From the NCBI GenBank assembly GCA_945877855.1, contig CAMDWA010000028.1:1-36367 (forward strand): 36,367 nucleotides of DNA, read 5' to 3'. The translations under genes were made by a program, and so were the position numbers. Every line of letters begins with the position of its first letter. Positions within the stretch are counted from its first letter, which is position 1. This DNA comes from Thermoflexus hugenholtzii JAD2. Lineage in GTDB: Bacteria; Chloroflexota; Anaerolineae; J036; Brachytrichaceae. This document shows, piece after piece, positions 225 through 34,873 of this stretch. Under the pieces are notes generated by a model. It worked only from the letters and a program-made list of their open reading frames with translations. It did not search any database and had not been told where the DNA came from.

Positions 225-1370
225 CTAAGCTTTGACCTTGGCTTTCAACTGCCCACAACCGGCGGCGATGTCGATGCCACGCCGCACGCGCACACTGTTG
301 GGCACACCGGCGGCATCGAGCACGGCGCAAAATTTGGCGATGCGGTCACGCTGCGAGGCAAGGCCATCGTAACCATTGGTGGGGTTAAGCGGAATCATAT
401 TGACGTGCAACATATGCCGTCGCTCACGACGCGGGTCGTAGGTTTGACGCACCACATTTACCAAAGCATGGGCTTGGTCAATCGTGTCGTTTACACCTTC
501 AATCAAGGCCCATTCAAAACTAACGCGGCGGTTGGTAATGTGAATATAGTCACGGGTGGCCTCGGTTAGCTCGCTCAAAGGGTAGCGGGCGTTGATGGGA
601 ACCAATTTGTTGCGCAATTCATCGGTGCCAGCATGGAGCGACACGGCCAAATTGACCTGCCCGCCCTCTTCAGCAAATTTGCGGATGCCCTGCACCAGCC
701 CAACGGTTGAAACGGTGACTTTGCGTGCGCCTAGCCCAATGCCGCCTTGATCTTCGGCCTCGGTCAAGCGCCGCACCGCCGTCATGACATGGTTATAGTT
801 GGCAAATGGCTCGCCCATGCCCATTAACACCACATTGGTTAATTGAGAATTTAAAATTGAAAATGAAGAATTAGGGGAATGCTCCATTTTTAATTTTTCA
901 TTCTCAATTCTCAATTGCCGATTGGCCCACAGCACTTGCTCAAAAATTTCGCTGGCGGTCAGGTTGCGCAAGAAGCCCATTTGACCAGTGGCGCAAAAGC
1001 TGCAATTCATGGCACAACCGGCCTGCGACGAAATACAGGCGGTGCGACGTGCGCCCTCATATTCCATCAACACGGTTTCGATCTCGCTGCCATCGGGCAA
1101 GCGAAACAACCATTTGCGCGTCCAGCCATCGCTCGATTCTTGTTGTAGCACTGGCGTTAGCCGCCCCAACACATAGGCAGCGCTCAGTTTGCCGCGCAGG
1201 TCTTTGCTCAGGTCGGTCATTTCGTCAATGCTGCCAACATTGCGTTGATATAGCCAGCGCCAAATTTGTTTGGCGCGAAAAGCCGGCTCACCCCACGCCA
1301 TTAATTGGGCCGCCAATTGCTCGCGGCTAAGGTCGTATAGGCTGGGCAGATGAAAGTGTAAGTCGTTCAT
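225..1370 (-). CDS. rlmN: Radical-SAM 23S rRNA (A2503-C2) / tRNA (A37-C2) methyltransferase RlmN
   Basis: 381-aa ORF with the radical-SAM CxxxCxxC motif (CAMNCSFCATG), the GMGEP motif and a C-terminal catalytic Cys (AAGCGQL); similarity runs along the full length. Contains an in-frame AT-rich palindromic insertion (see findings). Confidence 0.9.
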   Translation of the reverse strand: MNDLHFHLPSLYDLSREQLAAQLMAWGEPAFRAKQIWRWLYQRNVGSIDEMTDLSKDLRGKLSAAYVLGRLTPVLQQESSDGWTRKWLFRLPDGSEIETVLMEYEGARRTACISSQAGCAMNCSFCATGQMGFLRNLTASEIFEQVLWANRQLRIENEKLKMEHSPNSSFSILNSQLTNVVLMGMGEPFANYNHVMTAVRRLTEAEDQGGIGLGARKVTVSTVGLVQGIRKFAEEGGQVNLAVSLHAGTDELRNKLVPINARYPLSELTEATRDYIHITNRRVSFEWALIEGVNDTIDQAHALVNVVRQTYDPRRERRHMLHVNMIPLNPTNGYDGLASQRDRIAKFCAVLDAAGVPNSVRVRRGIDIAAGCGQLKAKVKA

Positions 1371-1390: not shown

Positions 1391-1426
1391 CCACACCCCA
1401 CACCCCATACCCCACACCCCAAACCC
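1391..1426 (-). repeat. Heptanucleotide tandem repeat (CCACACC on + strand, GGGGTGT on the rlmN mRNA strand), a predicted G-quadruplex motif in the rlmN 5' leader
   Basis: Four C4 tracts (1396-99, 1403-06, 1410-13, 1417-20) plus one C3 tract, separated by 3-nt loops, with a 7-nt period. It lies 20-56 nt upstream of the rlmN ATG on the coding strand. Confidence 0.7.
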
Positions 1427-1634: not shown

Positions 1635-4478
1635 TTACCGCACCTCAATCACCCCCGCCCACCAACCTTGACCCCCCACCAACAAACGCTCGCCCGAATA
1701 AGGCAAATAGAAGCCGACACGCAACTGATACTGACCGAGCGGCACATTGTCCAAGCCAAGCATGCGCTCGTCACGCACCCATTCACCCGCCGCCCAGCGC
1801 GAGGTGGGATAAGCCCCATTGAGCGGCTGCCCATCGTTTTGCGCCACCAAGCGCCCCGTTTTGGGGTCGATGAGATGCACAAACACCACATAATCTTGCT
1901 CGATGGGCTGCAACGAGTGCCAATGGAGTGCAAGTTGCAGGTTGCAAGTTGTGGCTTTCATCTCACACGCTGTCATATCAAACCCCGCCAATTCGATCAC
2001 GCCGCCCATAACCGCACCCACCCGCACCTGCGGCGAGGCCACCGCAAAGTTGCGCGGCGGGGCATTCACCGTAATCGCGCCCAAGTCGGCCAACAGCTTG
2101 CCATCGGCCAACACCTGCAATTGATAATCGCCAGCAGCCAAATTGCGCGGTAAGCGTAATTGATAACGGTCGAGCAACGCCAAGTTGGGCGGCCATTCGG
2201 CAAAGGGCAAACGGGCGCGGGCGGGTGCGCCATCAAACAAAGTAACAAGGCTTGGCCCAAGCAACTGCACCTTGAATGTGGCATTTGGCATGGGTTGGGC
2301 TGCCCCTTGCCAACACAGGTCTAGATTCAGCAACGCCCCCGTGTTTAAAGTGCGCTCGCGCAATTGCCACGCGCTTAAGGTTGCACCATTGGGCAAATGG
2401 GTTTGGGTGCTGGTGTAGGGGGCAGCGCTGCAAATGGGCACGGCGGCTGTCACAGGGGGGCGGGGCAATGGGGCGCTCAGTTTGCCAAACGGCAACACCA
2501 GCTCTAGCCCAGCAAATTGCTCATTGGGGCCAACCCGCGGCGGCACATCTTTGGTGTTTGGGTTAAAAAAGCTGATGCCGATTTGATAATCGCCAACCGG
2601 TGGGGTTCCGGTCGGCGGCGGCAATTCGATCTGGTCAAACACAATCTCACCCACCGTCCAATCGGCGGTGGGGTAATGAAATGGGTTGGCACGCACCCAT
2701 TCGCCCGACTCGGCATGAAACAGCCGCGCTACCAACTGCAACGGCTGCCCAATCTGGGCCATCGGCTCCCAGATCACGGTTGCCACACACGGCCCTTGCA
2801 CATGACATTCGCCAAATTTTTGAGCATCGCGCACTTTGACGATGTGGGCAAAATCGGCGGCGGGCGCGGGCAATTGGGCGCGAATGGCCGCGATATCGGC
2901 CTCGCGTAGCCGCATCACACGGGCGGCAACTACGCCATCGGGCGCGGTCAAGAGCGTATCGGTTTGCCAACGGCTGGTGATGAGCGTTGAATAGGGGGCG
3001 GGCGGGTCAACGAAGGTGGGCAAATAATAGAGCGCGTCGCCCTTGGGCGGCAGCACCAGCGTCGCCCCGCCGGTCAGCCATTTCACCTGCCCAAAACGCT
3101 GGGTCAGCGCCGCCACGGTCGGCGATTGATAATGGATGGAGGCGACATACAGCGTGGTGTTTTGCACATCGGCAACACTGCGGCGCTGCAAATCTTGCCC
3201 AATCACAGTCATATTGCCATCGGTGGCAACGAATAAATCGGGCGAGTGATTCCAGCGTGAGTAGCGGTTCCATGCTAGCAAACCAAGCATCGCCGCTGCG
3301 CACATCAACCCAATTTGCAGCCAGCGCCGCGAAATAGTGTGGGGGGGTAACAAACTGTGCAACCCATTAAACAGCGTCACACCGCCATAACCAATCACCG
3401 GTGCGAGAAAGGTCCAAACACCGATCATGCGAATATTGCTAGGGATGATGTCTTTGACCGCCAAGGCGCTGGGCACAAGCATGATTACTAGCCCGGACAA
3501 CAATAACGCCCGCGTGGCATAAACCTCCGAGGTCTTAAAGACCTCGGAGGTTTTTTGTGGGATGAGTAGCGTGATTACCCCAATTAACCCAAACAATGAG
3601 AAAACTTCGCCACTCAGCGGCAGGCCCGGCAGGTTATAGCGCACATTAGGGTCGCCGAAGTTGGGCAAAAACAAGCCGAGCCAACATTGCCACCATGCCC
3701 ACGCCACCTCGCGCCAGCCCGCACTACCACTCACTTGGTCGAGCCGCGCCGAAAAAATATCGGGGTTTTGAATAAAAAACCAGCCCAATGGCGCAAACAC
3801 TATTGCCGCCACAAGCCCCATCAACCCCACCCGTGCCAAACGCTGACCACACCCACGCCGGGCAGACACAGCCAACCACACCAATAACGCCAAGGCGACC
3901 GGAATAGGAAACAAACGCGCCGCCAAATAAGTATAGGCGACCAAACCGAGAAAAACACCCGCCGCCGCAAACCAACGCCAGCGTCCCGTATTCATGCCGC
4001 GCCATAGCGCCATAAGCACCAACGCCTGCACCACCGGTTGTGAGCCAGCGCGATAGCCATAACGCGCAAAAATGAGCGGCGCAATGCTGACAGCCAGCCA
4101 AAACGCGGCGATCAGGGCGATGGCATTGCGCTGAGGGTGCGCGGCAAACAACGAGCGCGTCATTGAAAAAGTGGCGGCGATGCCGATGAGGCTGAGCATG
4201 GCCGAAGCAAGGCGCGTACCCCAAGTGGCGTTATCGGCCATCATCAACCAAGGCGCGGCCCAATATAAAAAGCCCACCTCACGCCCGACAAAGGCCCGCA
4301 CAAAAATAGGCCGGTCTCCGTTATAGGCAATATCGCGGATGTTTAACACGTAGGCGGCTTCGTCGTAATGCAGCCCATGGGCAAGGGTAGTGATATCGGT
4401 CAGGCGCAATAACGCCGCCACCAGTAAAATCAAGGTGGCAAGCCATAAGGTGGTGCGGGCATCAGGTCGGCGCAACAT
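1635..4478 (-). CDS. GT-C superfamily membrane glycosyltransferase (ArnT/PMT_2-like, GT39/GT83-like) with a large C-terminal extracytoplasmic domain
   Basis: 947 aa with about 12-13 predicted TM helices in the N-terminal 450 aa, an HYDEAAY (DE) motif in the first loop, and a long non-membrane C-terminal domain. Contains a 33-bp in-frame palindrome at 3521-3553. Confidence 0.6.
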   Translation of the reverse strand: MLRRPDARTTLWLATLILLVAALLRLTDITTLAHGLHYDEAAYVLNIRDIAYNGDRPIFVRAFVGREVGFLYWAAPWLMMADNATWGTRLASAMLSLIGIAATFSMTRSLFAAHPQRNAIALIAAFWLAVSIAPLIFARYGYRAGSQPVVQALVLMALWRGMNTGRWRWFAAAGVFLGLVAYTYLAARLFPIPVALALLVWLAVSARRGCGQRLARVGLMGLVAAIVFAPLGWFFIQNPDIFSARLDQVSGSAGWREVAWAWWQCWLGLFLPNFGDPNVRYNLPGLPLSGEVFSLFGLIGVITLLIPQKTSEVFKTSEVYATRALLLSGLVIMLVPSALAVKDIIPSNIRMIGVWTFLAPVIGYGGVTLFNGLHSLLPPHTISRRWLQIGLMCAAAMLGLLAWNRYSRWNHSPDLFVATDGNMTVIGQDLQRRSVADVQNTTLYVASIHYQSPTVAALTQRFGQVKWLTGGATLVLPPKGDALYYLPTFVDPPAPYSTLITSRWQTDTLLTAPDGVVAARVMRLREADIAAIRAQLPAPAADFAHIVKVRDAQKFGECHVQGPCVATVIWEPMAQIGQPLQLVARLFHAESGEWVRANPFHYPTADWTVGEIVFDQIELPPPTGTPPVGDYQIGISFFNPNTKDVPPRVGPNEQFAGLELVLPFGKLSAPLPRPPVTAAVPICSAAPYTSTQTHLPNGATLSAWQLRERTLNTGALLNLDLCWQGAAQPMPNATFKVQLLGPSLVTLFDGAPARARLPFAEWPPNLALLDRYQLRLPRNLAAGDYQLQVLADGKLLADLGAITVNAPPRNFAVASPQVRVGAVMGGVIELAGFDMTACEMKATTCNLQLALHWHSLQPIEQDYVVFVHLIDPKTGRLVAQNDGQPLNGAYPTSRWAAGEWVRDERMLGLDNVPLGQYQLRVGFYLPYSGERLLVGGQGWWAGVIEVR

Positions 4479-4502
4479 AGCGGGCGATATTACCAGAAAG
4501 TG

Positions 4503-4625
4503 GGGAGCCGTGAGCCATGAGCTTTGAGCTTTGAGCCTTGAGCCTTGAGCTATGAGTCACAAGTCACGGCTCATGGCTCATGGCTCATAGCTCATGGCTC
4601 CAAAGCTCATGCCTCACGGCTCAAA
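4503..4625. repeat. Quasi-palindromic heptamer array (TGAGCNN x7, then its complement NNGCTCA x8) in the divergent promoter region
   Basis: Left arm tgagcca/tgagctt/tgagctt/tgagcct/tgagcct/tgagcta; the right arm is the complementary set cggctca/tggctca/tggctca/tagctca and so on. It sits between the GT gene start (4478, minus) and the CMD start (4642, plus). Confidence 0.75.
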
Positions 4626-4641
4626 GCTATACAATACAGAC

Positions 4642-5031
4642 ATGAGCAAATTAATTGAATATGACGAGGCTAGCCCCGAAGTGCGGTCTGTGTATGATGA
4701 CATTCGCGCCACACGCAAAAGTGATTTTATCAACAACTTTTGGAAAGCCATTGCCGTAAACCCACAAAATTTGCGGCGGGCATGGCAACACACCAAAGAG
4801 ATTATGACCGGCCCGGGCAGCATTGACCCGCTGGTGCGTGAAATGATTTATATTGCCGTCAGTGTCACCAACGGCTGCGAGTATTGCATCGCCAGTCACA
4901 CGGTTGCCGCTCGCAACAAAGGCCTGACCCCTGAAATGTTTGGCGATATGATGGCCATTATTGGCCTCGCCAATGAAAATAATCGCTTGGTGAAGGGATA
5001 CCAGGTGGAGATCGACGCGGCGTTTAAATAA
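4642..5031 (+). CDS. Carboxymuconolactone decarboxylase (AhpD-like) family protein
   Basis: CxxCxxxH motif (CEYCIASH) and a size typical of the CMD family. Start chosen at MSKLIEY (ATG 4642) because the upstream ATG at 4594 lies inside the heptamer hairpin. The stop overlaps the amidase start (TAATG). Confidence 0.6.
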   Translation: MSKLIEYDEASPEVRSVYDDIRATRKSDFINNFWKAIAVNPQNLRRAWQHTKEIMTGPGSIDPLVREMIYIAVSVTNGCEYCIASHTVAARNKGLTPEMFGDMMAIIGLANENNRLVKGYQVEIDAAFK

Positions 5032-6416
5032 TGATGACCAACTTGACCTTTACCCCCCTCAGCAAACTGCGCCGCATGTTACGAGATAAAAAAATCTCGT
5101 CGGTTGAGTTGACCCAGCATTTTTTAGACCGTTTGGCCCAACACGGCCCCAAATATAACGCGCTGGCCGAGCTGACACCCGATTTGGCATTGGCGCAAGC
5201 CAAACAGGCCGATCAATTGCTCAAAAAAGGCGAACACAACTCACCCTTGCTCGGCATTCCCTATGGGGCCAAAGATTTGCTGGCAACCAAAGGCATCCCC
5301 ACCCGTTGGGGATCACCCGCCCACCAAGACCAAGTGCCAGAGGTCGATGCCACAACGGTGCTGCGCCTGCGCGAGGCAGGTGCACCATTATTGGGCAAAT
5401 TGGCAATGGTCGAAATTGCGGGCGGCGGCGGGTATTCATTACCCAGCGCCTCGTTGCATGGGCCGGGGCTTAATCCTTGGAATGTTAATACGTGGTCAGG
5501 TGGCTCATCATCGGGGTCGGGCAGCGCGGTGGCGGCGGGGTTGGTGCCGTTTGCGCTTGGCTCTGAAACATGGGGCAGCATCGTCACACCGTCAACCTAT
5601 TGCGGCATTACTGGCTTGCGCCCAACCTATGGCTTGGTCAGCCGCTTTGGGGCAATGGAATTGGCGTGGACGATGGACAAAGTGGGGCCGATGGCGCACA
5701 GCGCCGAAGATTGTGGCCTCATTCTGCAAGCCATTGCTGGCCCTGATAGGCTCGACCTGACCGCAACCGGCAAATTTAAATTTCGCCCACGCAAAAAACA
5801 ACATCATAAGTTGCGGTTAGGCGTGTTGCCTGCCGATTTTAGTGGCGAGCCTGAGCTTGAGCAGGTTTTTCAGGCCGCGCTTGAGGTGTTGCATAAGGCC
5901 GGTATGAAGATCAAACCAGTGGAGTTGCCCAAGCACGACTATGCTGGCATCGCCAATACGCTGCTGTATGCCGAAATGGCGGGGGCGCATGAGGCGTTTA
6001 TCAAAAGCGACAAACTTGATTTGCTGGTGAATGGCCCGCAAAAAGAGGGCTTGCGCAACGCCTTAACCTACACTGCCGCCCAAACCATTCAAGCCCAACA
6101 ACAAAAATTACAGGCCACCCACGACCTGTTGCAGCTTTTTGACGAATTTGATGCGCTGGTGTCGCCGTCACTCATGATTGAGGCCCCATCGCTTGACACC
6201 GACTTGCGCACGGCGTTTAAACGGCGCGGGGGCTATAGCGTGTTGGGGGCCTTGTGTGGCGTGCCGGCCTTGGCTTTGCCGATGGGCTTTGGCAAATCGG
6301 GTTTGCCGCTTGGCCTTAATATTACCGGCAATTTGTTTGACGAAAACACCATTTTGCACATCGGCATGGTTTATCAGCGCGAAACCGATTGGCATGAACG
6401 GCGACCACCAATTTAA
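5031..6416 (+). CDS. Amidase-signature family amidase (GatA-like)
   Basis: Amidase signature GGSSSGSGSAVAAG...GSETWGSI with the catalytic Lys in YGAKDLL. 461 aa, translationally coupled to the upstream CMD gene. Confidence 0.8.
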   Translation: MMTNLTFTPLSKLRRMLRDKKISSVELTQHFLDRLAQHGPKYNALAELTPDLALAQAKQADQLLKKGEHNSPLLGIPYGAKDLLATKGIPTRWGSPAHQDQVPEVDATTVLRLREAGAPLLGKLAMVEIAGGGGYSLPSASLHGPGLNPWNVNTWSGGSSSGSGSAVAAGLVPFALGSETWGSIVTPSTYCGITGLRPTYGLVSRFGAMELAWTMDKVGPMAHSAEDCGLILQAIAGPDRLDLTATGKFKFRPRKKQHHKLRLGVLPADFSGEPELEQVFQAALEVLHKAGMKIKPVELPKHDYAGIANTLLYAEMAGAHEAFIKSDKLDLLVNGPQKEGLRNALTYTAAQTIQAQQQKLQATHDLLQLFDEFDALVSPSLMIEAPSLDTDLRTAFKRRGGYSVLGALCGVPALALPMGFGKSGLPLGLNITGNLFDENTILHIGMVYQRETDWHERRPPI

Positions 6417-6683
6417 ATTTAAAAGATGTCATGTCGGCTCCGCGACTGAAGTCGCCCCTAAAGGCTTCGCCGATTGCCCGCCTACGCGGGCAGAAATTGC
6501 GTCCCCGAAGGGGGACGCTCGGCAAAGCCTTTAAGGACGACTTCGAGTTGTCCAAAATATTCAATTCCACGATCATCTTGACCCTTACAAATTTCGATAA
6601 AAACGTTCACACTTCGTTTTAAAATAAAATATATCACAGATAATGTAATATCATTCTAATACTTCGAGCGCATACTTAGCCCT

Positions 6684-10288: not shown

Positions 10289-11188
10289 ATGCCAAAGTCT
10301 CTACTCACTGCAATTATCACTGTCTTCATCATGCTGGTCGGGCCAAGCATTGCCAAAGCCACCCCACCCACCCCCATTAGCTCATTGGCAGGCTGGAACG
10401 CTGAATATTGGGACAATGCCGAGCAAAATGGCGAACCCATTCTCAGCCGCATGGATGGGGCAATTAATTTTAATTGGGGCAACGCTGCCCCCAACAGTGA
10501 GTTGCCAAGCGATCATTTCTCGGTGCGTTGGTTGCAAACCATCAGTGTGCCAGCCGGTCGCTATCGTTTTACGCTCTATGCCGATGATGGCATTCGTATC
10601 TTTGTCAATCATAAGCTGGTGCTAAACCGCTGGGACAACCAAGGCTATCAAGTCCATTCGGTAACGGTAGACCTTGAAGGTGGTGGTGACTTGGTGCGCA
10701 TTGACTATGTTGATCGTGGTGGCAGTGCCCGTGTGCAACTCAAGGCCCAACGCATTACCCTTGCGGCTACGGCTGCCCCACAACGTGAATTGCGCCCAGT
10801 CAGCAAAAGCAACAACCGCCCCTGGGAAATTGCATTTTTTAACAATACCGAACTGAAGGGCGAACCGATTCACACCCTGCAAGCCACCAATGCCAATTTT
10901 GATTGGGGCAAATCGAAGCCCAAATTGGTAACGCAAAACGGTTTCTCGGTGCGCATGACCAAGCGTGAATATTTGGGGGCTGGTAATTATCGCTTTATCG
11001 TGGCCGCCGATGATGGCATTCGCATGTTCGTAGATGGCAAATTGGTAGTGAATGACTGGCAACCCGCCCGCAACCATATTTCACGCAGCACTGGGCTAGC
11101 GCTCGACACTGGCTTTCATGAGATCGTGGTCGAATATTTCAATCAAGGCAGCAGCTCACAACTTAATGTGACGTGGGAATTGTCATAA
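10289..11188 (+). CDS. Secreted protein with two tandem PA14 domains
   Basis: Signal peptide (MPKSLLTAIITVFIMLVGPSIAKA), then two repeats of the PA14 pattern (GW/WE..F.N..L.GEP...DFNWG...FSVRW...G.YRF...ADDG.R.FV...LV.N.W). The track ORF starts further upstream, at 10172. Confidence 0.75.
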   Translation: MPKSLLTAIITVFIMLVGPSIAKATPPTPISSLAGWNAEYWDNAEQNGEPILSRMDGAINFNWGNAAPNSELPSDHFSVRWLQTISVPAGRYRFTLYADDGIRIFVNHKLVLNRWDNQGYQVHSVTVDLEGGGDLVRIDYVDRGGSARVQLKAQRITLAATAAPQRELRPVSKSNNRPWEIAFFNNTELKGEPIHTLQATNANFDWGKSKPKLVTQNGFSVRMTKREYLGAGNYRFIVAADDGIRMFVDGKLVVNDWQPARNHISRSTGLALDTGFHEIVVEYFNQGSSSQLNVTWELS

Positions 11189-13869: not shown

Positions 13870-14840
13870 TCACCCCCCTGATGGGTAGCACGGCACTGGC
13901 TTGTTGGATAGTGCACAACAACCTCACAAGACCAGTCCGCGTTGACGCAAATGCAGCACTCACCCTGCTATCAATTGAGGCGGTGGGCGCGTTTGTCTGG
14001 CTTGCTTGCGCGGCTCGTGCGGGGGCAGATGCCCAGCAACTGACAGTTGCTGGGCATCTACTCACCCTTAATTGATGGCAAACGTAACACTCACCACGCC
14101 ATCAATTGAGGCAGTGATGGGGTTAGTCTGGCGTGCTTGCGCGGCTCATGCGGGTGCAGATGCACCGCACCTCGCAGGTGCGGCGCATCTACTCACCCCA
14201 CGTTGGTGGCAAATGCAACGCTCACCCCGCCCTCAATTGAGGCAGTGATGGGGTTAGTCTGGCTTGCTTGCGCGGCTCGTCCGGATGCAGATGCACCGCA
14301 CCTCGCAGGTGCGGCGCATCTACTCACCCTTAAATTGATGGCAATGCAACGCTTACCCCGCCCTCAATTGAGGCAGTGGGCGCGGTCATTTGGCTTGCTT
14401 GCGCGGCTCGTGCGGGGGCAGATGCCCAGCAACTGACAGTTGCTGGGCATCTACTCACCCTTAATTGATGGCAAACGTAACACTAACCCCGCCATCAATT
14501 GAGGCAGTGACGGGGTTAGTCTAGCTTGCTTGCGCGGCTCATGCGGGTGCAGATGCGCCGCACCTGCGAGGTGCGGCGCATCTACTCACCCTTAAATTGG
14601 TGGCAAATGTAACACTCACCCTGCCCTCAATTGAGGCGGTGACGGGGTTAGTCTGGCGTGCTTGCGCGGCTCGTGCAGGTGCAGATGCCCAGCAACTGGC
14701 AGTTGCTGGGCATCTACTCACCCTTAAATTGATGGCAAATGCAACGCTCACCCCACCCTCAATTAAGGCGGTGGGCGCGGTCGTTTGGCTGGCTTGCGCG
14801 GATCGTGCGGGTGCAGATGCGCCGCACCTGCGAAGGGCGA
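13870..14840. repeat. Tandem array of about 7.4 units of ~131 bp (130-133 bp), each with two conserved hairpins and two alternating variants
   Basis: Unit starts (motif caattgagg) at 13971, 14104, 14234, 14365, 14496, 14628 and 14760. Variant A hairpin is gatgcccagcaactg-aca-cagttgctgggcatc; variant B hairpin is gatgcgccgcacct-gcg-aggtgcggcgcatc. A second hairpin, aattgatggc...gcc(a/c)tcaatt, spans the unit junctions. Confidence 0.85.
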
Positions 14841-14888
14841 CGACGACATCTCTTTGCCAATATGACACCCCTGCCCCCCACGGCCGGG

Positions 14889-14968: not shown

Positions 14969-17839
14969 TTAACCGGAGGCCCGAGCGGAGAATCGGGGCG
15001 CACTACTCACCAAACGAAAACCGTCGTTGCTGTCACGGATGTCTACATGGGAGTCGTCACGGACCGCCGCCCGCGCATCCGTATCATAGTTATACCACGA
15101 CCCGCCGCGCACGACCCGCTTTTTTATATTTTCTATACTTGGGTCTTCACGTTCCAAATTCGCCTGATATGGATACGCTAAGTAAGCACTGCTCGTCCAT
15201 TCCCACACATTACCGCATAAATCGCTAATGCCTTCAGGCGTTTCGCCCTCGGCAAAGAGACCAATCGGGGTGGTGCGACGAATATGACGCTCGAACGTAT
15301 TGCATTGACTGGCTTCAAATTTTTCGCCATACGCATAGGCACGCGCCCGCCCGCGCCGGTCAGGTTGACCCCGCGCTGCGGCCTCCCACTGCGCTTCGCT
15401 CGGCAAAACATAGCGGCTGCCAATTTGGGCACTCAGCCACAAACCATAGGCCCGCGCCTCATGCCAACATACCCCCACCACCGGCTGGCTGGGCTGGTTA
15501 AAGGCGCTGTCTTCCCAAAACCGCGGCTGCAGCGGCACCTCACCCATCGGAAAGGTTTTAGCCAACCACGCTTCAAAGGCCTCATCACTCCAATTGCGAA
15601 GCGTATGCCAAGCTCGCGCTTGGGTTGAGGTGCAGCGTTGTTGCGCCAATAAATGGTCGATATAGTCCTCCTCCCAGCTTTTTATAGCTTGTCTGCTGCT
15701 TCGCCAGCCCTCGCGCTGGCCTGCCACCGCACCTTCGGGGGTGCGAAAATAGCTTGCGGCTGGCGTATCCCACCAACGGGCATCGCTATAACCACCCGCA
15801 CGCATAAAACAAGCAAATTCGGCATTGGTGACCGGAAACTTACCCATGCGAAATGCATCCAACTTGACGCGGTGCACATGCTTAGCATTATCATACGACT
15901 GGTCTTGGTCGCCCAGCACATAGTCACCGGCCTCAATGGCGATCATGGGCGGCAACAGATATTCATGCCCCAGCTTGCCCATGCGCCGCTCAAAACGCGG
16001 GTCGCCCAGCCCCCCCAACGCCTCACCGGCGGCAATCCGCGCCCGTAGGTCGGCGTTGCGGTCTTGGCTGCGGGCAATCAAGCCTTGCTGCAACTCGTGC
16101 AACAAGGTGGTCGCCAGCTTGGGCTTGACCTGCGCCGCCACCTCGGCCGCCAACGGCAAGTTGAGCGGCATCAGGCTGGCAATCAGCGCATTCGGCTGCT
16201 CACTCAGTTGGGCCGCCAATTTCAGCGTTTCGGCCCAGCCGCTGCGATCGAGCGGCGGCAATGGCTCATAATCTTGGGCGGTTGCCAGCCACTGCGCCAA
16301 ACTCGGCTGCACCGCCTCGGCCTGCCACGCAATCGCCGCCAGCGGCGCATCAAATTGGCGGGCCGCACGGCGGGCCGCAAAAAATTCTTGCAGCAATTGA
16401 TGATAAAACCAAAACTCCTCGCGTTGGCGATCTTCATCTAGCACCGTCAGGGCCACGCCTGCCGTCAGCACCTCGCGCGCCCGTGGGTGTTGCAACACGT
16501 CGCAGGCGCGGGCTTCGTCCAACGTCACCCGCCCACCCGCGCCAGCCAGCCCTTGGCATTGCATGGCATAGGCCAATTCGCTTAGCTTGGGCATGAGCAA
16601 CCCGCGTTCGGGCAAACGCAGGTTGGTTTGGGTATCAACACGGGTGACATCTTCACGGTCACGCAGGTCGAATAGCGCTTCGTCCAGCAGCAGTGCATTC
16701 TTGCCCTCCACCTCGCGGCGGGCGGCGCGCCGCACCAGCTCGGCAAATAACTCGGCGCGGCTAGCCGGAATTTGCCCGGCCCGCTCATTCACCAAATCGC
16801 ACAATATTTTGGCGAAATAAGGCGTGGCATATAACGCAAGTTGCTCAGGCTGGTCCTTGATCTTGCCCCATATCGCAGCGGCGTGTTTGGGCGTATGTTG
16901 CTGCAAAAACGCCTCAAGCTGAACCGCATTGAGCACCTTCAGCGTGATCTGGCGCACATCCACATCGTCTTTCACGCTTAGGGTTTGGCTATAGTCGAGG
17001 CTGCGGCAGGTAAACACGGCGCGATTGCCCGATGGCAGGTCATCGCGCAAAAAATCGCGCCAGCGTTCCACCTGTTTGCCATATACCGCCCCGTTTGGGT
17101 GTGGCATCTCGTTCAGTGCATCCAACAACAGCAACACACACCCTTGCGCCAAAAAATAATCGAGCGGCGGCAGGGTGACATGAAAGCGCTTCAGCGTTTG
17201 CTGCCATTGTTGCGCCAGCCACTCGGCTGGGTCGGGCGCGTCGGGCGTGTATTTGTTGAGTGTAACAAACAATGTCACACTCAGCTGGGGTTGGTCTGCC
17301 GCCAAATACTCGGTCGCGCTTTGCCATTGCAGGCGGCGCAGCAAGGTGGTTTTGCCGCCGCCCGGCACCCCCAGCAGCACCAGCGACGGGTCGGTGATTT
17401 CCGCATCCGCCAGAACCTCGCTCAGGTCTTGGTAATCGTGGTCGCGCTCGGCAAAGCTCAGGCTGGTGTCGGTTTTTTGGCGGTCGAGCAGCCGCATCCG
17501 CACAAAACGGGTGTCAATTTGGCGCTTTTGGGCCAAATCTTTCGCCACTGCGCGATGATATGCCGTCAATGCGGCTTGGGTGGCGGCGGGGTCGGGCGCG
17601 GGTTGGGCATCGGCAAAGCTGATATTCGGGCGGGCCTCACGCACGGCTTGCAGTAATTTGGCATAATCGCCACGCGATTCGCAATGCTTAATCAAGTTCA
17701 TGGCGAACTTGGGTTGGGTATTGCGCTCAAAATCCTCGTCTCCAATCCCCAACTCAAAACACAACAGTTCGAGTTCGTCTGTTTTGAAATGCGCCTTCAA
17801 TGCCGCATAAAGTTGTTGCTGGGTTGGGGTATGGGGCAT
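14969..17839 (-). CDS. STAND NTPase: N-terminal death-like/effector-associated helical domain, NACHT P-loop NTPase, HEAT-like repeats and a C-terminal FGE-sulfatase (SUMF1-like, C-type-lectin fold) domain
   Basis: Walker A LLGVPGGGKTTLL, a NACHT-type Walker B LLLLDALNEM, and a HEAT-like AAGEALGGLGDPR. FGE motifs: HRVKLDAFRMGKFPVTNAEF, GNVWEWTSS, RVVRGGSW...GFRLV. The N-terminus carries LxxALKAHFxxxELELLCFELGIGDEDF. Confidence 0.8.
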   Translation of the reverse strand: MPHTPTQQQLYAALKAHFKTDELELLCFELGIGDEDFERNTQPKFAMNLIKHCESRGDYAKLLQAVREARPNISFADAQPAPDPAATQAALTAYHRAVAKDLAQKRQIDTRFVRMRLLDRQKTDTSLSFAERDHDYQDLSEVLADAEITDPSLVLLGVPGGGKTTLLRRLQWQSATEYLAADQPQLSVTLFVTLNKYTPDAPDPAEWLAQQWQQTLKRFHVTLPPLDYFLAQGCVLLLLDALNEMPHPNGAVYGKQVERWRDFLRDDLPSGNRAVFTCRSLDYSQTLSVKDDVDVRQITLKVLNAVQLEAFLQQHTPKHAAAIWGKIKDQPEQLALYATPYFAKILCDLVNERAGQIPASRAELFAELVRRAARREVEGKNALLLDEALFDLRDREDVTRVDTQTNLRLPERGLLMPKLSELAYAMQCQGLAGAGGRVTLDEARACDVLQHPRAREVLTAGVALTVLDEDRQREEFWFYHQLLQEFFAARRAARQFDAPLAAIAWQAEAVQPSLAQWLATAQDYEPLPPLDRSGWAETLKLAAQLSEQPNALIASLMPLNLPLAAEVAAQVKPKLATTLLHELQQGLIARSQDRNADLRARIAAGEALGGLGDPRFERRMGKLGHEYLLPPMIAIEAGDYVLGDQDQSYDNAKHVHRVKLDAFRMGKFPVTNAEFACFMRAGGYSDARWWDTPAASYFRTPEGAVAGQREGWRSSRQAIKSWEEDYIDHLLAQQRCTSTQARAWHTLRNWSDEAFEAWLAKTFPMGEVPLQPRFWEDSAFNQPSQPVVGVCWHEARAYGLWLSAQIGSRYVLPSEAQWEAAARGQPDRRGRARAYAYGEKFEASQCNTFERHIRRTTPIGLFAEGETPEGISDLCGNVWEWTSSAYLAYPYQANLEREDPSIENIKKRVVRGGSWYNYDTDARAAVRDDSHVDIRDSNDGFRLVSSAPRFSARASG
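14995..15112 (-). other. Putative DGR variable region (VR) at the C-terminus of the FGE domain
   Basis: RGGSW-YNYDTDARAAVRDDSHVDIRDSNDGFRLV. The scaffold positions match the canonical FGE-type template pattern RGGSWNNN..AR.A.R......GFR, and the variable codons are mostly NNC/NNT (tat aac tat gat...gac tcc cat gta gac atc cgt gac agc aac gac), as expected for AAC/AAT-derived mutagenesis. Confidence 0.5.
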
Positions 17840-23971: not shown

Positions 23972-24963
23972 ATACAGAAGAAATGCTCACCCAATATCAG
24001 CAAAAACCCGATGCTGACTTTGCCAAGAAATTGTATCGGCAAATCGATCAGCCAACCGCCACCCGCAAAATTGCACCAGCACGTGCCGCCACCCTCGCCA
24101 TTGCAGGGGCCGCCGCCGTTGGCATGGTGATGTTTAGCGTGCCAAATGTCAGCGAAGCTGCGCAAAACTTCCTCAATTTATTCCGAGTCAAACAAGTCAC
24201 CGCCATCGCCATTGACCCAGCACGCCTAGAAGCGCTGAGCAAAATAGCCAAAGACAACAAAATTGACCTCAAAGCGCTTATCGGCGATGACATCAAAATT
24301 ACCAAAGAGCCGGGCAAGCCCTCGCCAGTTGCCAACGCCGAGCAAGCCAGCAAATTGGCTGGCTTTACGGTAAAGATGCTCGGCCCAACTTCGGGCATGA
24401 CGATGGACAGCATCAATGTGCAAAATGAAGGGTCCTCACAAATTAAGGCCAACAGCGCCAAATTGAACGCTTTGCTCACCACCATGGGCATTACCGATAT
24501 CAAGGCTCCAGCCAAACTCGATGGTGCAACCCTTGCCGTCACCATGCCCAATGTCGTCGCCACTCGTTATTCTGGCGCACGTGGCGAGGTGCTCATTACC
24601 CAAGCCAAAAGCCCCGAAGTTACTTTACCCGATGGCGTGACGATGGCTGAATTGGGCGAGATCGGGTTACGGCTGACCGGCATGCCCGCCAACGATGCCA
24701 AACGGTTGGCTGCCACCATCGATTGGAACAGCACCTTGGTCGTGCCCATCCCCACCAATGTCGCTTCGTTCCGTGATGTCACGGTGCGCGGCAACAAAGG
24801 CGTATTAATCACCCAAAGCGGCAACGGCGCAACCGCCGCCCGCGCCAACAACAGCCCACGCGCCTCGGCGACCCTCATCTGGTCAGAGAATGGCATCGTT
24901 TACGCCGCCGCCAGCACCCTCTCACCCGACGACCTCACCGCCATCGCAGCAACATTACAATAA
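23968..24963 (+). CDS. Putative anti-sigma factor (single TM, large extracytoplasmic domain)
   Basis: ATGA overlap with the sigma gene; short N-terminal cytoplasmic segment, one TM helix (ATLAIAGAAAVGMVMFSV), then a ~270-aa external domain. Confidence 0.55.
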   Translation: MNTEEMLTQYQQKPDADFAKKLYRQIDQPTATRKIAPARAATLAIAGAAAVGMVMFSVPNVSEAAQNFLNLFRVKQVTAIAIDPARLEALSKIAKDNKIDLKALIGDDIKITKEPGKPSPVANAEQASKLAGFTVKMLGPTSGMTMDSINVQNEGSSQIKANSAKLNALLTTMGITDIKAPAKLDGATLAVTMPNVVATRYSGARGEVLITQAKSPEVTLPDGVTMAELGEIGLRLTGMPANDAKRLAATIDWNSTLVVPIPTNVASFRDVTVRGNKGVLITQSGNGATAARANNSPRASATLIWSENGIVYAAASTLSPDDLTAIAATLQ

Positions 24964-24965
24964 GA

Positions 24966-25068
24966 GTGGCAGGAGGCAAGTGGCAGGTAGCAAGTGGCAA
25001 GTAAAAAGTATCTAACTACTTTGCACTTTGCACTTTGCACTTGCCACTTGCCACCTGCCACCTGCCCC
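24966..25068. repeat. Quasi-palindromic heptamer array (GTGGCAR x~7 / YTGCCAC x~7) followed by a T-tract; probable terminator or attenuator between the anti-sigma and ABC genes
   Basis: gtggcag gaggcaa gtggcag gtagcaa gtggcaa ... tttgcac x3 ttgccac x2 ctgccac ctgcccc, then tttttt and the ABC ATG at 25075. Confidence 0.75.
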
Positions 25069-25074
25069 TTTTTT

Positions 25075-25998
25075 ATGTTCGTTATCGAAACCCAACACCT
25101 GCAAAAACAATTTGGCAATAAGCTAGCCGTTGCCGATCTTACGCTCACGGTCAACTCAGGCGAGGTGTTTGGGTTTCTGGGGCCAAATGGGGCAGGTAAA
25201 AGCACCTCAATTAAAATGTTGTTGGGGTTAGTCAAACCCAGTGCGGGCAACTGTTGGGTATTGGGGTTGCCGCCCGGCAATGTGCAAGCTCGCCGCAAAA
25301 TTGGCTTTTTGCCCGAGCATTTTCGTTTTCACGATTGGCTGACCGGACGCGAGTTTCTGCATTTTCACGGGCGGTTATATGGCATGTCGGGCCAAGCACT
25401 CAAACAACGGATCGAGACATTGCTGGCGCGGGTCGCCTTGTTAGAAGCGGGCGACCGCAAATTGCAACAATATAGCAAAGGCATGTTGCAGCGCATCGGG
25501 TTGGCAATGGCCTTGCTCAATCACCCCCAAATTGTCTTTTTAGACGAGCCAACCTCAGGGCTTGACCCATTAGGCCGCCTGCTGGTGCGCGATATCATCA
25601 CGGAAATACGCAACGAAGGCACTACTGTCTTTCTAAATTCGCACTTGCTCAGCGAAATCGAAGTGACGTGTAACCGCGTGGTTTTTCTCAAGCGCGGCAA
25701 TGTGGTGCGCGAAATCAACTTAAAAGACAATGAAATTCATATCAACGAACTCGAACTAAAATTGGGGCCGGTCGATGACAGCATTTTGCAAGGGTTAGCC
25801 CAATTTGGCAGCAATGCCCATCGAGATGGCGACCTCATTCGCATGAATATTCAAGACGAAGCCAGCCTGCCACAACTGGCCCGTTGGCTGGTCGGCCAAG
25901 GTTGCGAAATTTATCGCCTCGCTGCCCATCACCCATCGCTTGAACAACTGTTTGTTGAAACCATGACCGAAGAAAATAAGTTAACCATTGATGGTTAA
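25075..25998 (+). CDS. ABC transporter ATP-binding protein (ABC-2 / exporter type)
   Basis: Walker A GPNGAGKST, signature YSKGMLQRIGLA, and Walker B IVFLDEPTSGLD. Confidence 0.85.
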   Translation: MFVIETQHLQKQFGNKLAVADLTLTVNSGEVFGFLGPNGAGKSTSIKMLLGLVKPSAGNCWVLGLPPGNVQARRKIGFLPEHFRFHDWLTGREFLHFHGRLYGMSGQALKQRIETLLARVALLEAGDRKLQQYSKGMLQRIGLAMALLNHPQIVFLDEPTSGLDPLGRLLVRDIITEIRNEGTTVFLNSHLLSEIEVTCNRVVFLKRGNVVREINLKDNEIHINELELKLGPVDDSILQGLAQFGSNAHRDGDLIRMNIQDEASLPQLARWLVGQGCEIYRLAAHHPSLEQLFVETMTEENKLTIDG

Positions 25999-26078
25999 TG
26001 ATTAATGGTCAATGATTAATGGTTAATGATTAATGGTTAATGATTAATGATTAATGATTAATGATTAATGATTAATGG
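25995..26078. repeat. Heptanucleotide microsatellite TTAATGR x12 spanning the ABC ATPase stop codon and the permease start codon
   Basis: Units counted directly as ttaatga, ttaatgg, tcaatga, ttaatgg, ttaatga, ttaatgg, ttaatga x5, ttaatgg. The ATPase TAA (25996-98) is in unit 1 and the candidate permease ATG (26068) is in unit 11. Confidence 0.85.
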
Positions 26079-26946
26079 TAGTTTTGCTGCGTTAAAAATG
26101 ATGTTTACGATCGCCCATCTCACCTTTCATGAAGCCCTGCGCAAGCGGGTATTACTGGCGGCCATTGTGCTGGGGGCACTTTTTCTCATCGTCTTTGGCG
26201 TTGGCATTTATTTTATTAACGATGCGGTCATCCAACAAGAGTTACGATCAGCGCCGTCGGCCATTCGTGCCCAAAGCAACCGCCTCGCCTATAATTTTTT
26301 GGCGATGGCCGGGCTATACACGGTGAATTTTTTGCTGGTCATGATGGCAACCCTGTTACCCGTTGACACCCTTTCGGGCGAAATAAGCTCTGGCTCAATT
26401 CAGTCATTGGTGGTTAAACCGGTGCGGCGCTCGCAAATTGTGCTAGGCAAATGGCTGGGCTTTGCGTTCATTATGCTGATTTATGCCAGCTGCATGATTG
26501 GCGGCATCGTTGGCCTGGTGGCAATCATGACCAGCTATGACTTGCCCAATATTCACATCGCCCTGCCGATTATGTTACTCGAAACCTTGCTATTGCTCAC
26601 CTTGTCGATTGCAGGCGGCACGCGATTTACCACCTTAACCAATGGCGTTTTTGTGTTTGGTATGTTTGGCTTGGCCTTTATCGGCGGCTGGGTCGAGCAA
26701 GTCGGCGGTTTACTTGGCAATCAGGCCGCGCAAAATATCGGGGTCATCACCAGCCTCATCATGCCTAGCGAAGCGCTGTGGCGGCTAGCCGCGCATTATA
26801 TGCAACCCGATGGCATAAGCGCACTCAACATCACCCCATTTTCAAGCACCATTGTGCCCAGCCCCAATATGTTATTGTGGGCCATTGGCTACACCCTTAT
26901 TACGTTACTGCTCGCCATCCGCCACTTCTCGCAAAGAGATTTATAA
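26068..26946 (+). CDS. ABC-2 family transporter permease
   Basis: 292 aa with about 6 TM helices, located downstream of the ABC ATPase. The start is ambiguous (26068 inside the heptamer repeat, or ATG 26098). Confidence 0.65.
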   Translation: MINGSFAALKMMFTIAHLTFHEALRKRVLLAAIVLGALFLIVFGVGIYFINDAVIQQELRSAPSAIRAQSNRLAYNFLAMAGLYTVNFLLVMMATLLPVDTLSGEISSGSIQSLVVKPVRRSQIVLGKWLGFAFIMLIYASCMIGGIVGLVAIMTSYDLPNIHIALPIMLLETLLLLTLSIAGGTRFTTLTNGVFVFGMFGLAFIGGWVEQVGGLLGNQAAQNIGVITSLIMPSEALWRLAAHYMQPDGISALNITPFSSTIVPSPNMLLWAIGYTLITLLLAIRHFSQRDL

Positions 26947-26972
26947 ATTTACCGCATTTTCTCAATCATTGG

Positions 26973-27075
26973 GAGCATCCCCAAAAGACGTAACGCCGAA
27001 CGCACTGTCACTTTGTGTTTGAAGAGGGCAAAGCCTTCTTCAAACACAAAGTGACAGTGCGTTCGGCGAAAATAG
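26973..27075. repeat. ~100-bp palindromic MITE-like element (family 2, copy 1, inverted orientation)
   Basis: cgccgaacgcactgtcactttgtgtttgaagagggcaaagccttcttcaaacacaaagtgacagtgcgttcggcg plus the tail ggggatgc...cgtcttttgg. Near-identical to the copies at 32410 and 34717. Confidence 0.8.
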
Positions 27076-27166
27076 ATTTTGATTTCCCCTGTTTATTGAA
27101 TAGATATAAAAATACAATATAATATTACAGCAAAACTGAAAATCTATAATATTTCGGGGGTGTCTC

Positions 27167-32352: not shown

Positions 32353-32409
32353 TTTTAGCGTTTAGATTTACAATTAAAATAATTCAAAAATAGCGAAGAT
32401 TAAAACAAA

Positions 32410-32510
32410 TTTTCGCCGAACTCACTATCATTTTGTGTTTGGAGAGGGCTTTGCCCTCTCCAAACACAAAATGATAGTGAGTTCGGCATTACGTCTTTTG
32501 GGGACGCCCC
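32410..32510. repeat. ~100-bp palindromic MITE-like element (family 2, copy 2)
   Basis: ttttcgccgaactcactatcattttgtgtttggagagggctttgccctctccaaacacaaaatgatagtgagttcggcattacgtcttttggggacgcccc. Confidence 0.8.
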
Positions 32511-32548
32511 AATGATTAAAAGATACAAAAATTCAATCGTCAATCATA

Positions 32549-33412: not shown

Positions 33413-34707
33413 ACTGCGACCTCATCATCCACTCCGCCGCCCAACTCGTTACCTGCGCCAGCGCCAATAACGGCCCCAAACGCGGCCATGACATGCGCGA
33501 CGTTGGCGACATCGCCAATGGCAATCATTTGCCCGCCGCCATCGCCATTAGCGATGGGCAAATTATTGCCATTGGCCCAAGTGACGATATTTGTGCCGAC
33601 TATCAGGCAAAGCACAGCATCGATGCCAGCGGCAAAACCATTTGCCCGGGGTTGATCGACCCCCATACTCACCTCATTTACGCTGGCGACCGCGTGGCCG
33701 AATGGGAGATGAAACTGCGTGGTGTCGCCTACTTAGAAATTTTGGCCGCGGGCGGCGGCATCGTCAGCACCATGCGGGCCACACGGGCTGCCGGGATAGC
33801 CGCGCTGGTGGCGCAAGCAAAGCCGCGCCTCGACACGCTGATGCGTAATGGTGTCACCACTTGCGAGATCAAAACCGGTTATGGCCTCAGCCTCGAGGCC
33901 GAATTAGCCATGTTACAAGCCATTGAACAACTGGCACAAACCCACCCATGCGATGTGCTTTTAACATTACTCGCCGCCCATACCACCCCACCCGAATTTA
34001 AAACCGACCCAAATGGCTATGTCGATTTGGTGGTTGAGCAAATCATTCCCCAAGCCGCCGCATGGTTTAATCAAAACGCCCGTGCCAACCACGCTACACC
34101 CATGGCATGTGATGTATTTTGCGAAAATCACGCCTTTGATGTGGCGCAAGCACGGCGAATATTAATGGCAGGCAAACAACATGGCCTCACACCTAAAATC
34201 CACGTCGATCAATTTACCTCATTGGGCGGGGTCGAGATGGCGCTTGAGGTCGGCGCGTTATCGTGCGATCATTTAGATGTGACCACAGCCGACGATCGGG
34301 CGCGGCTAGCGCAATCATCGGCTGTAGCAGTGGTGTTACCCGCGGTCACATTTCATCTTGGCAGCCACCAATTTGCCAACGCCCGTGCTTTTATTGATGA
34401 TGGCTGTGCACTCGCGCTCAGCACCGACCATAACCCCGGCTCGGCCCCGTGTTTGTCGCCTGCGCTCACCATGTCGATCGCATGTCGTTACCAGAAACTC
34501 AACCCTGCCGAAGCGCTCAACGCTTGCACCATCAACGCCGCCCATGCACTTGGCATCGGCAACAAAGTTGGCTCGCTCGAAATCGGCAAACAAGCCGATA
34601 TCATTATCATCAACGCGCCCGACTATCGCCACTTAGCCTATCAATTTGGGGGCAATTTGGTGCAATATGTTATTAAAAATGGGGCAGTAGCAATGGTTAA
34701 TGGTTAA
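33409..34707 (+). CDS. hutI: Imidazolonepropionase
   Basis: Amidohydrolase fold with GLIDPHTHL, KIHVDQF and the metal-ligand pattern typical of HutI. Start taken at MNCDL, overlapping the upstream stop; the track ORF starts at 33385. Confidence 0.85.
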   Translation: MNCDLIIHSAAQLVTCASANNGPKRGHDMRDVGDIANGNHLPAAIAISDGQIIAIGPSDDICADYQAKHSIDASGKTICPGLIDPHTHLIYAGDRVAEWEMKLRGVAYLEILAAGGGIVSTMRATRAAGIAALVAQAKPRLDTLMRNGVTTCEIKTGYGLSLEAELAMLQAIEQLAQTHPCDVLLTLLAAHTTPPEFKTDPNGYVDLVVEQIIPQAAAWFNQNARANHATPMACDVFCENHAFDVAQARRILMAGKQHGLTPKIHVDQFTSLGGVEMALEVGALSCDHLDVTTADDRARLAQSSAVAVVLPAVTFHLGSHQFANARAFIDDGCALALSTDHNPGSAPCLSPALTMSIACRYQKLNPAEALNACTINAAHALGIGNKVGSLEIGKQADIIIINAPDYRHLAYQFGGNLVQYVIKNGAVAMVNG

Positions 34708-34716
34708 TGAATTTAT

Positions 34717-34816
34717 TTTCGCCGAACTCACTATCACTTCGTGTTTGGAGAAGGCAAAGCCTTCTCCAAACACAAAGTGATAGTGAGTTCGGCATTACGT
34801 CTTTTATGGTCACCCC
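34717..34816. repeat. ~100-bp palindromic MITE-like element (family 2, copy 3)
   Basis: ttttcgccgaactcactatcacttcgtgtttggagaaggcaaagccttctccaaacacaaagtgatagtgagttcggcattacgtcttttatggtcacccc. Confidence 0.8.
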
Positions 34817-34836
34817 AAATTATTGGAAAAATACTA

Positions 34837-34873
34837 AAAAGCCTTGATTTCTGATCAAAATCAAGGCTTTTTT
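34837..34873. terminator. Bidirectional rho-independent terminator (stem aaaagccttgatt / aatcaaggctttt, with T/A tracts on both sides)
   Basis: Hairpin followed by TTTTTT on the + strand (hut operon side) and by TTTTT on the minus strand immediately 3' of the tRNA. Confidence 0.7.

Follow-up and report, generated by a model that had tools for sequence, protein, structure and literature searches.

Records of heptanucleotide tandem repeats in cyanobacteria go back to 1990, and such repeats are known to be over-represented in bacteria. Those of filamentous cyanobacteria (Calothrix, Nostoc, Anabaena), known as STRR repeats, are described as direct arrays belonging to a few genome-wide heptamer families, with 7-nt units that lie mostly between genes, including inside operons, at many loci and in variable copy number (PMC4692102, PMC4679880). 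In Xanthomonas, which has an excess of heptamer simple sequence repeats (SSRs), GGGAATC heptamers occur in 70-75 cases as convergent inverted pairs, capable of forming stem-loops or cruciforms, whose position is kept among related species and whose length is variable, with the repeat type (single or paired) preserved (Rehm et al. 2015, PMC4692102). The (ATCTTTC)n tract of Haemophilus influenzae hmw1A is transcribed and forms a hairpin in the 5′ untranslated region (5′-UTR) that is processed by RNase III (PMC12721329), and the TAACTGA repeats of Beggiatoaceae, cyanobacteria and Bacteroidetes are direct, with one inverted case among 170 sets (MacGregor 2015, PMC4679880). We describe here two elements of inverted heptamer design in a 36,367-nt stretch of DNA (contig CAMDWA010000028.1; source contig ena:ERZ27280291:k141_110077; hereafter the window) from a lineage of the Chloroflexota, class Anaerolineae, whose closest genomes are uncultured Chloroflexota/Anaerolineae metagenome-assembled genomes. 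Element 1 (E1, 4503-4625) and element 2 (E2, 24965-25074) each consist of two successive heptamer arrays, the second being the reverse complement of the first, and we read both as inverted heptanucleotide microsatellites of a lineage-wide, STRR-like class that grew in place by slippage, any function being secondary to this mutational origin, a reading to which we give a probability of about 0.68.

Compared by sequence with these systems, E1 and E2 resemble the STRR repeats and the Xanthomonas pairs yet fall outside the sequence families that define either, and likewise outside MITE/REP and Rfam families. Like STRR repeats, the arrays of this lineage have 7-nt tandem units at many dispersed and mostly intergenic loci, but they occur in a chloroflexotal rather than a filamentous cyanobacterial host, most loci have their own unit instead of drawing on a few shared families (STRR1-3), and 50% of the arrays form hairpins with an inverted partner. 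The close convergent layout is that of Xanthomonas, where, however, the repeats draw on one G-rich unit family that could form G-quadruplexes, whereas the units of E1 (TGAGCYW) and E2 (GGCAAGT/GCAAAGT) are unlike each other and free of G3-tracts; only some arrays of the lineage are G-rich, namely those at 1391-1426 of the window and at 5347-5535 of L168, another contig of the window's species (~95% nucleotide identity). With hmw1A, the only heptamer-SSR hairpin with an experimentally tested mechanism among those found here, they share a position adjoining a gene start and a copy number that varies between strains, in this case by 21 nt (E1 right arm against a close strain, L001; a CCACACC array against L168). 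There, in contrast, a unique G-rich segment takes the place of a complementary array as the second arm, and the element is transcribed, whereas E1 probably lies outside both adjoining mRNAs. The TAACTGA repeats are likewise intergenic, often end at or next to a downstream start codon and tend to coincide with contig breaks (PMC4679880), and the unit of a third array of the window (E3, TTAATGA) resembles theirs in carrying TAA, TGA and ATG, but they represent one specific heptamer that is almost always direct. The initial annotation of this DNA had aptly noted the likeness to cyanobacterial STRR repeats; it overstated how unusual a 7-bp period with palindromic organisation is, in view of the convergent Xanthomonas pairs (PMC4692102) and of the inverted partner that ~16% of period-7 arrays have among unrelated contigs (2.2 Mb). 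The inverted heptamer class, related to the known cyanobacterial and Xanthomonas repeats, seems to be new for Chloroflexota, and a search of the literature at hand found no report tying heptanucleotide tandem repeats to Chloroflexi.

E1 fills the gap between a PMT_2-type glycosyltransferase gene (1635-4478, minus strand) and a divergent CMD-family gene (4642-5031) with a coupled amidase gene; an exact-protein look-up of the CMD gene product gave no record. Tandem Repeats Finder (TRF), used for tandem-repeat calls, reports (GAGCCTT)x6.6 at 4505-4550 and (TCATGGC)x8.4 at 4564-4623. From sequence, TRF and the minimum-energy fold, the left arm (4503-4558) comprises ~7-8 units NNTGAGC (variants CGT, CAT, TTT, TTT, CTT, CTT, TAT), the centre or loop, ACAAGTCAC, spans 4559-4567, and the right arm (4568-4625) holds ~8 units GCTCANN. 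The arms, 44 nt long, are 82% complementary, rising to 95% in the outer 22 nt (inverted-repeat pair I11), and their variant order is mirrored in the outer 3-4 units (CGT, CAT, TTT), the inner units being different. As RNA (4495-4641), E1 reaches -91.5 kcal/mol, whereas dinucleotide shuffles give -44.8 +/- 4.1 (z = -11.4; none of 200 as good), and as DNA it folds to -47.9 kcal/mol (z = -8.5); the stem has ~51 bp (47 Watson-Crick and 4 G-U pairs), close to the ~55 bp estimated at first.

The gene starts on either side of E1 are preceded by -10-like boxes: TAATAT with a preceding TGn (TGgTAATAT; 4487-4492, minus strand), a putative leaderless promoter 8 nt ahead of the ATG of the glycosyltransferase gene (4478), and a putative TACAAT (4630-4635, plus strand), 6 nt upstream of the CMD ATG (4642) and kept in three relatives (L001, L002 and L012). 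Because the -10 boxes that flank it belong to divergent genes, both apparently leaderless, E1 is probably promoter-spacer DNA that neither promoter transcribes and that lies outside both mRNAs. It would then be a variable-length spacer standing in place of both -35 regions; a sigma-70 consensus scan at E1 called no promoter and no recognisable -35 element, and a terminator consensus scan called nothing there, E1 being devoid of a T-tract. The dyad centre of E1 (~4563) is within 2 nt of the midpoint between the two boxes (4561), and such a placing would suit arrays that serve as cooperative protein-binding platforms, whether for a regulator of the glycosyltransferase and CMD-amidase genes at E1, for a single-strand binder of the cold-shock type (~7-nt footprint) or for a nucleoid protein, with the inverted layout providing a symmetric site. 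The TGAGC core upstream of the CMD gene is kept in the window and in L012 despite a different flanking gene, heptamer-binding proteins have been proposed in Nostoc (bioRxiv 10.1101/2022.06.06.494920), and binding of the CspB type, one protein per heptamer, is discussed in PMC4679880. Yet the heptamer changes at every locus, so no single protein would read all of them, a 7-bp spacing leaves successive sites on differing faces of B-DNA, no candidate regulator gene adjoins E1, and close strains differ in copy number, all of which makes a binding platform very improbable as the general explanation.

E2 takes up the 111 nt that separate an anti-sigma-like gene from an ABC ATPase gene in a sigma/anti-sigma/ABC/permease cluster, and TRF resolves it into (AGTGGCA)x5.4 at 24965-25002 and (ACTTTGC/CACTTGC)x~7.5 at 25018-25070. 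On the plus strand, its left arm (24965-25010; GGCAGGA, GGCAAGT, GGCAGGT, AGCAAGT, GGCAAGT, AAAAAGT) begins 2 nt past the anti-sigma stop codon (24961-24963), the fold places the loop at 25011-25016, and the right arm (25017-25068, by sequence, TRF and fold) reads ACTTTGC x3, ACTTGCC x2, ACCTGCC x2, followed by a T6 tract (25069-25074) that directly adjoins the ABC ATPase start codon (25075), which has no Shine-Dalgarno sequence. The 48-nt arms are 79% complementary and share an outer-to-inner gradient of units, GGCAGGT, then GGCAAGT, then GCAAAGT; the RNA folds to -62.2 kcal/mol (z = -7.8) with a stem of ~41-45 bp, and 5 nt (GCCCC) separate stem and T-tract in the minimum-energy register, a gap closed in an alternative repeat register. 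What had been proposed from the bare letters thus holds for both elements as regards a heptamer array and its complement forming a long imperfect hairpin (TRF, folds), two sequences unrelated to each other, and locations in a divergent control region (E1) and at the anti-sigma/ABC junction (E2). The unit reading GTGGCAR x7 for E2 captured array and complement and missed that the inner units are GCAAAGT/ACTTTGC and that the left arm has ~6 units. E2 and E3 are not assembly artefacts, both being base-identical in four independent assemblies.

Stems of intrinsic terminators usually measure 5-15 bp. E2 resembles such a terminator in its GC-containing stem followed by a T-tract at a gene 3′ end, and in the ordinary hairpin that occupies its junction in a relative; it differs in a repeat-built stem of ~41-45 bp, in having the T-tract against the next start codon, and in the absence of that tract from an orthologue, and E1 has no T-tract at all. 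The terminator consensus scan did not call E2. In the sigma/anti-sigma/ABC transcript, E2 would form a stem-loop of ~41-45 bp ending at U6 against the ABC start codon, and would act either as an intrinsic terminator or attenuator of unusual size or as the target of a double-strand-specific RNase; a role in termination, attenuation or RNA processing is plausible.

The two elements belong to a much larger family. Among periods 4-12, only period 7 yields arrays in the window, five at the chosen score against ~0 in 50 Markov-3 simulations, which excludes a chance origin, and TRF makes period-7 calls at E1, E2, E3 and four further sites. A census of lineage contigs amounting to 85 kb counted 38 period-7 arrays (44.8 per 100 kb), a density ~5x that of the other bacterial contigs fetched here (208 arrays in 2.21 Mb, or 9.4 per 100 kb); an inverted partner beyond that expected from shuffled flanks accompanies 19 of the 38 (50%), against 33 arrays (16%) in the comparison set. 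Over 98 kb of lineage DNA, 44 TRF rows have period 7, and no other period from 6 to 20 has more than 8, save its double, 14 (10 rows). The relation of these arrays to genes, which the initial annotation had proposed to examine, is that most of them sit at gene junctions and an occasional one in a coding loop that tolerates it. That annotation had also entertained the possibility that the two elements are peculiar to the window; the design instead recurs within the window, in L168, in the sister species AQU-02 (contigs L165 and L012, with at least five palindromic pairs within 17 kb) and, sporadically, at loci of other Chloroflexota, Gemmatimonadota and Acidobacteriota. Examples are found in L165 at 5010-5093, 10514-10608 and 15088-15230, and in L168 at 5347-5535 and 6507-6570, L168 having junctions made wholly of heptamer palindromes, one of them nested.

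What recurs is the design and hardly ever the sequence: 136 canonical heptamers are spread over 217 arrays, most loci having a unit of their own and few units recurring (RTTAATG, for example, at four loci), and no second copy of E1 or E2, orthologues aside, exists in the fetched DNA. REP, BIME and MITE families, in contrast, are defined by shared sequence, and MITEs often carry target-site duplications. The heptamer palindromes are similar to these families as intergenic imperfect palindromes at gene ends, and non-autonomous mobile elements of MITE-like or foldback-like type, with heptamer-built inverted termini and inserted at gene junctions, would account for three facts: the corresponding junctions of a distant relative (L170) are empty, with overlapping genes; the left edge of E1 is exactly where the window and L012 cease to be syntenic; and the 14-mer GGTTAATGATTAAT recurs in the window, L165 and L168 at loci that are not orthologous. 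Each locus nonetheless has its own heptamer, neither E1 nor E2 has near-identical copies at unrelated loci, target-site duplications or flanking direct repeats, orthologues vary in unit number and in graded variants rather than by having or lacking a common consensus element, and indels are whole units; the true dispersed palindromic family of this genome (three copies, 81-86% identity) looks quite different. With no shared sequence or target duplications, and with orthologues diverging gradually, a MITE or transposon was rejected, and insertion of mobile elements as such is highly doubtful. Known Rfam RNA families were rejected too: at the gathering threshold a tRNA alone matched in the window, and a permissive search gave only sub-threshold eukaryotic miRNA-precursor hairpin models. 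CRISPR was rejected for the period of 7 and the lack of spacers.

Evolution in place is seen at orthologous junctions, where elements persist between species as unit sequence and copy number drift. In L012, the E1 orthologue lies upstream of the CMD gene and keeps TGAGCYW units (5 + 2 copies); its centre has decayed, and the gene on its upstream side is another one. In L165, the E2 orthologue has the unit GCAAAGT, which is the inner unit of E2 in the window, in 4.4 + 8 copies and without the T-tract, and the ABC/permease junction, occupied by E3 in the window, has a perfect (ACGAGTA)x4/(GTTACTC)x4 hairpin of a different but related heptamer. Closer strains differ by whole-unit indels of 21 nt, that is, three units, which bears out the strain-to-strain copy-number variation that the initial annotation had suggested looking for: the CCACACC array of the window exceeds that of L168 (547-572) by exactly this length in an otherwise identical aligned flank of ~310 nt, and the right arm of E1 in L001 is 21 nt shorter and has other unit variants, next to a gene 98.8% identical. 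A metagenome scan with the CMD protein added one close relative, whose contig stops 3 nt before the CMD gene; the remaining 79 loci, at most 73% identical, served as background set only.

At the anti-sigma/ABC junction, relatives form a graded series. In L170 (42% identical) the stop and start codons overlap, with an ATGA overlap at the next junction; in L169 (64% identical) there is an ordinary hairpin of 8-11 bp with a T-rich tail; in L165 and L166 (75-76%) and in the window there are heptamer palindromes, and the base of E2 (AAGAG...CCCCTTTTTT) resembles the ordinary hairpin of L169. Comparison of these relatives suggests that E2 began as a small hairpin of terminator-like type and expanded through 7-nt slippage. 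The suggestion that E2 is a giant terminator or attenuator fares unevenly, the T-tract being absent from L165 and the scan silent; a terminator-like origin is plausible because the 64%-identical relative has an ordinary hairpin and T-rich tail there. The centre of the E2 orthologue seems inverted between L165 (7470-7500) and L166 (1040-1078), either through a recombination flip between the arms or as an artefact of the assembly path; L166 is a 1-kb contig that stops inside the palindrome, where assemblers may cross the loop either way, and the inversion was not used as evidence.

The same series can be read as the record of selected cis-acting RNA hairpins, that is, oversized terminators or attenuators, RNase III sites or mRNA-stabilising stem-loops that set cistron ratios, with unit number as a tunable or phase-variable dial. 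Such selection would explain the strong E2 stem followed by U6, the occupation of the same three junctions in a species with ~75% protein identity, the normal terminator-like hairpin of L169 at the E2 junction, stems set against the start codon of a following gene that has no Shine-Dalgarno sequence, and the strain differences in copy number, and it has a precedent in the RNase III-cleaved heptamer SSR hairpin of the H. influenzae hmw 5′-UTR, which controls expression (PMC12721329). Against it stand the absence of the T-tract from L165, the silence of the terminator scan on E2, the position of E1 upstream of both putative leaderless starts, the equal design inside the rlmN coding sequence, and the fast turnover of unit sequence and arm lengths. 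Nor do folding energies prefer the sense strand (E2, -62 on the plus and -71 on the minus strand; E1, -90 and -81.5), and a sense-strand G-U bias, as a sign of selection at the RNA level, is inconsistent for E1 and E2 and was not used as functional evidence. We consider selected RNA hairpins unlikely as the primary explanation. More doubtful still is a functional operon-junction design, in a lineage with many seemingly leaderless genes, in which the stem would join stop and start codons, or an RNase cut in the double strand would leave a 5′ end of the downstream cistron at its AUG, with growth or shrinkage by 7 nt keeping the coupling, unit number acting as a heritable and quickly mutable control of cistron ratios, and a dedicated hairpin-templated copying matching the arms.

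The E2 outer variants are missing in L165, and therefore new variants entered both arms within the window lineage. A second case of arm matching lies in rlmN (225-1370), which encodes a radical-SAM methyltransferase: a heptamer palindrome at 838-918 (minus strand; AATTGAG-type units, then CTCAATT-type) is in frame and encodes the surface-loop insert QLRIENEKLKMEHSPNSSFSILNSQL, in a loop of hypervariable length that ranges from ~5 to >40 residues across Anaerolineae RlmN proteins. Against an orthologue 98% identical at the protein level, a span of 62 columns in the loop and right arm holds 21 of the 54 nucleotide differences, and these turn a CTCAACS-type arm, which pairs with the left arm solely via G-U on the antisense strand, into the CTCAATT arm, Watson-Crick complementary to it. 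Arm matching may thus stem from hairpin-templated copying or from selection for pairing, and the in-frame palindrome with its clustered differences points to a mutational rather than a designed origin.

Under growth in place by slippage, a short sequence already present at a junction, which for E2 would be an ordinary small terminator-like hairpin, is proposed to have been amplified in steps of 7 or 21 nt by slipped-strand mispairing, and the arms to have been kept complementary by intrastrand template switching, which copies one onto the other (quasi-palindrome correction); alternatively, tight gene spacing may tolerate only those length gains that a hairpin can absorb. Any function would have come after this mutational origin. 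Several points weigh against this account or limit it. Elements at three junctions are kept between species of ~75% protein identity, which could reflect selection for function; the occurrence of the 14-mer GGTTAATGATTAAT at non-orthologous loci is unexpected under a purely local origin; and the seed series covers four lineages, its direction resting on parsimony. Template switching is inferred from mirrored variants and one substitution burst, and selection for pairing predicts the same pattern. Pairing is not obligatory, as the CCACACC array and most of E3 are partnerless and the arms of the E2 orthologue in L165 are unequal. Finally, the window's contig is the only one that spans E1, the close-strain assemblies L001, L002 and L085 breaking in or at it; an artefact is nevertheless unlikely there, since the L012 orthologue is internal to its contig. 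Contigs of four relatives (L001, L002, L085 and L166) stop in or at heptamer elements, which break short-read assemblies of this lineage.

For the origin and function of bacterial heptanucleotide repeats, this lineage is a case of uncommon density and clarity, with a graded series at orthologous junctions from overlapping genes through an ordinary hairpin to a heptamer palindrome. Public reads and metatranscriptomes would allow direct tests of two questions, namely the mechanism of 7-nt slippage and arm matching, and any effect of the hairpins on termination, RNA processing or translational coupling.

The other arrays of the window show the range of the class. E3, (ATTAATG/GTTAATG)x13 at 25981-26079 on the plus strand (TRF 25987-26077), has ~1.3 complementary units to its left and fills the ABC ATPase/permease junction, providing the stop codon of the upstream gene and in-repeat ATGs. 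(CCACACC)x5 (1391-1426, minus strand) lies 21 nt upstream of the rlmN start without an inverted partner; on the rlmN sense strand it is G-rich, (GGGGTGT)n, and a possible G-quadruplex. Two arrays are minor, (TGCAAGT)x3.3 at 1929-1951, called by TRF inside the glycosyltransferase coding sequence and shared with L168, and (AATGGTT)x2.6 at 34692-34709 (plus strand), at the stop codon of an amidohydrolase gene, whose unit family is that of E3. Outside the window, a 190-nt junction of L168 (5324-5514, minus strand) is a palindrome within a palindrome, in which a GGGAATA/GGGGATT-type array and (TCCCTAT)x12 enclose an inner mini-palindrome of the CATGAGT type, the G-tract units being like those of Nostoc and Xanthomonas. 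In L165 (15871-16063), (AAGAGCC)x12.6 and (CAACTCT)x8.9 pair on the minus strand only, via 31 G-U pairs (-91 against -30 kcal/mol), and this structure, if real, would be possible only as RNA of that strand.

Several further features of the window were noted. In many of its genes a -10-like TAnnnT box precedes the ATG by 6-8 nt and a Shine-Dalgarno sequence is lacking (for example those starting at 4478 and 17839 on the minus strand, and at 4642 and 30136), and the NACHT gene has a perfect promoter arrangement, TTGACA-17-TATAAT-8-ATG, which suggests that leaderless mRNAs are widespread in the host organism. The product of this last gene (14969-17839, minus strand) is a 956-aa protein with EAD7, NACHT and FGE-sulfatase domains, according to precomputed Pfam matches of an identical gene in L081, and would be a STAND-type NTPase whose effector or sensor domain is unusual. 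The gap between it and a PPK2 gene holds a GC-rich tandem repeat (13941-14870) of ~7 copies of 131-132 bp, 68-89% identical, with a period that is not a multiple of 3, no long open reading frame (ORF) spanning it and no Rfam match. The CMD and amidase genes downstream of E1 are directly coupled in the window (TAATG, 5031-5034), without the ~640-bp insert with a small ORF that separates them in L001 (433-1076), L002 (485-1128) and L012 (6437-7073). The dispersed palindromic family mentioned above is an element of ~125 nt (26956-27078, minus strand; 32409-32531 and 34715-34839, plus strand), REP/MITE-like and distinct from the heptamer arrays, which sits just past gene 3′ ends and has a near-perfect palindromic stem of 33-36 bp whose arms change together between copies.

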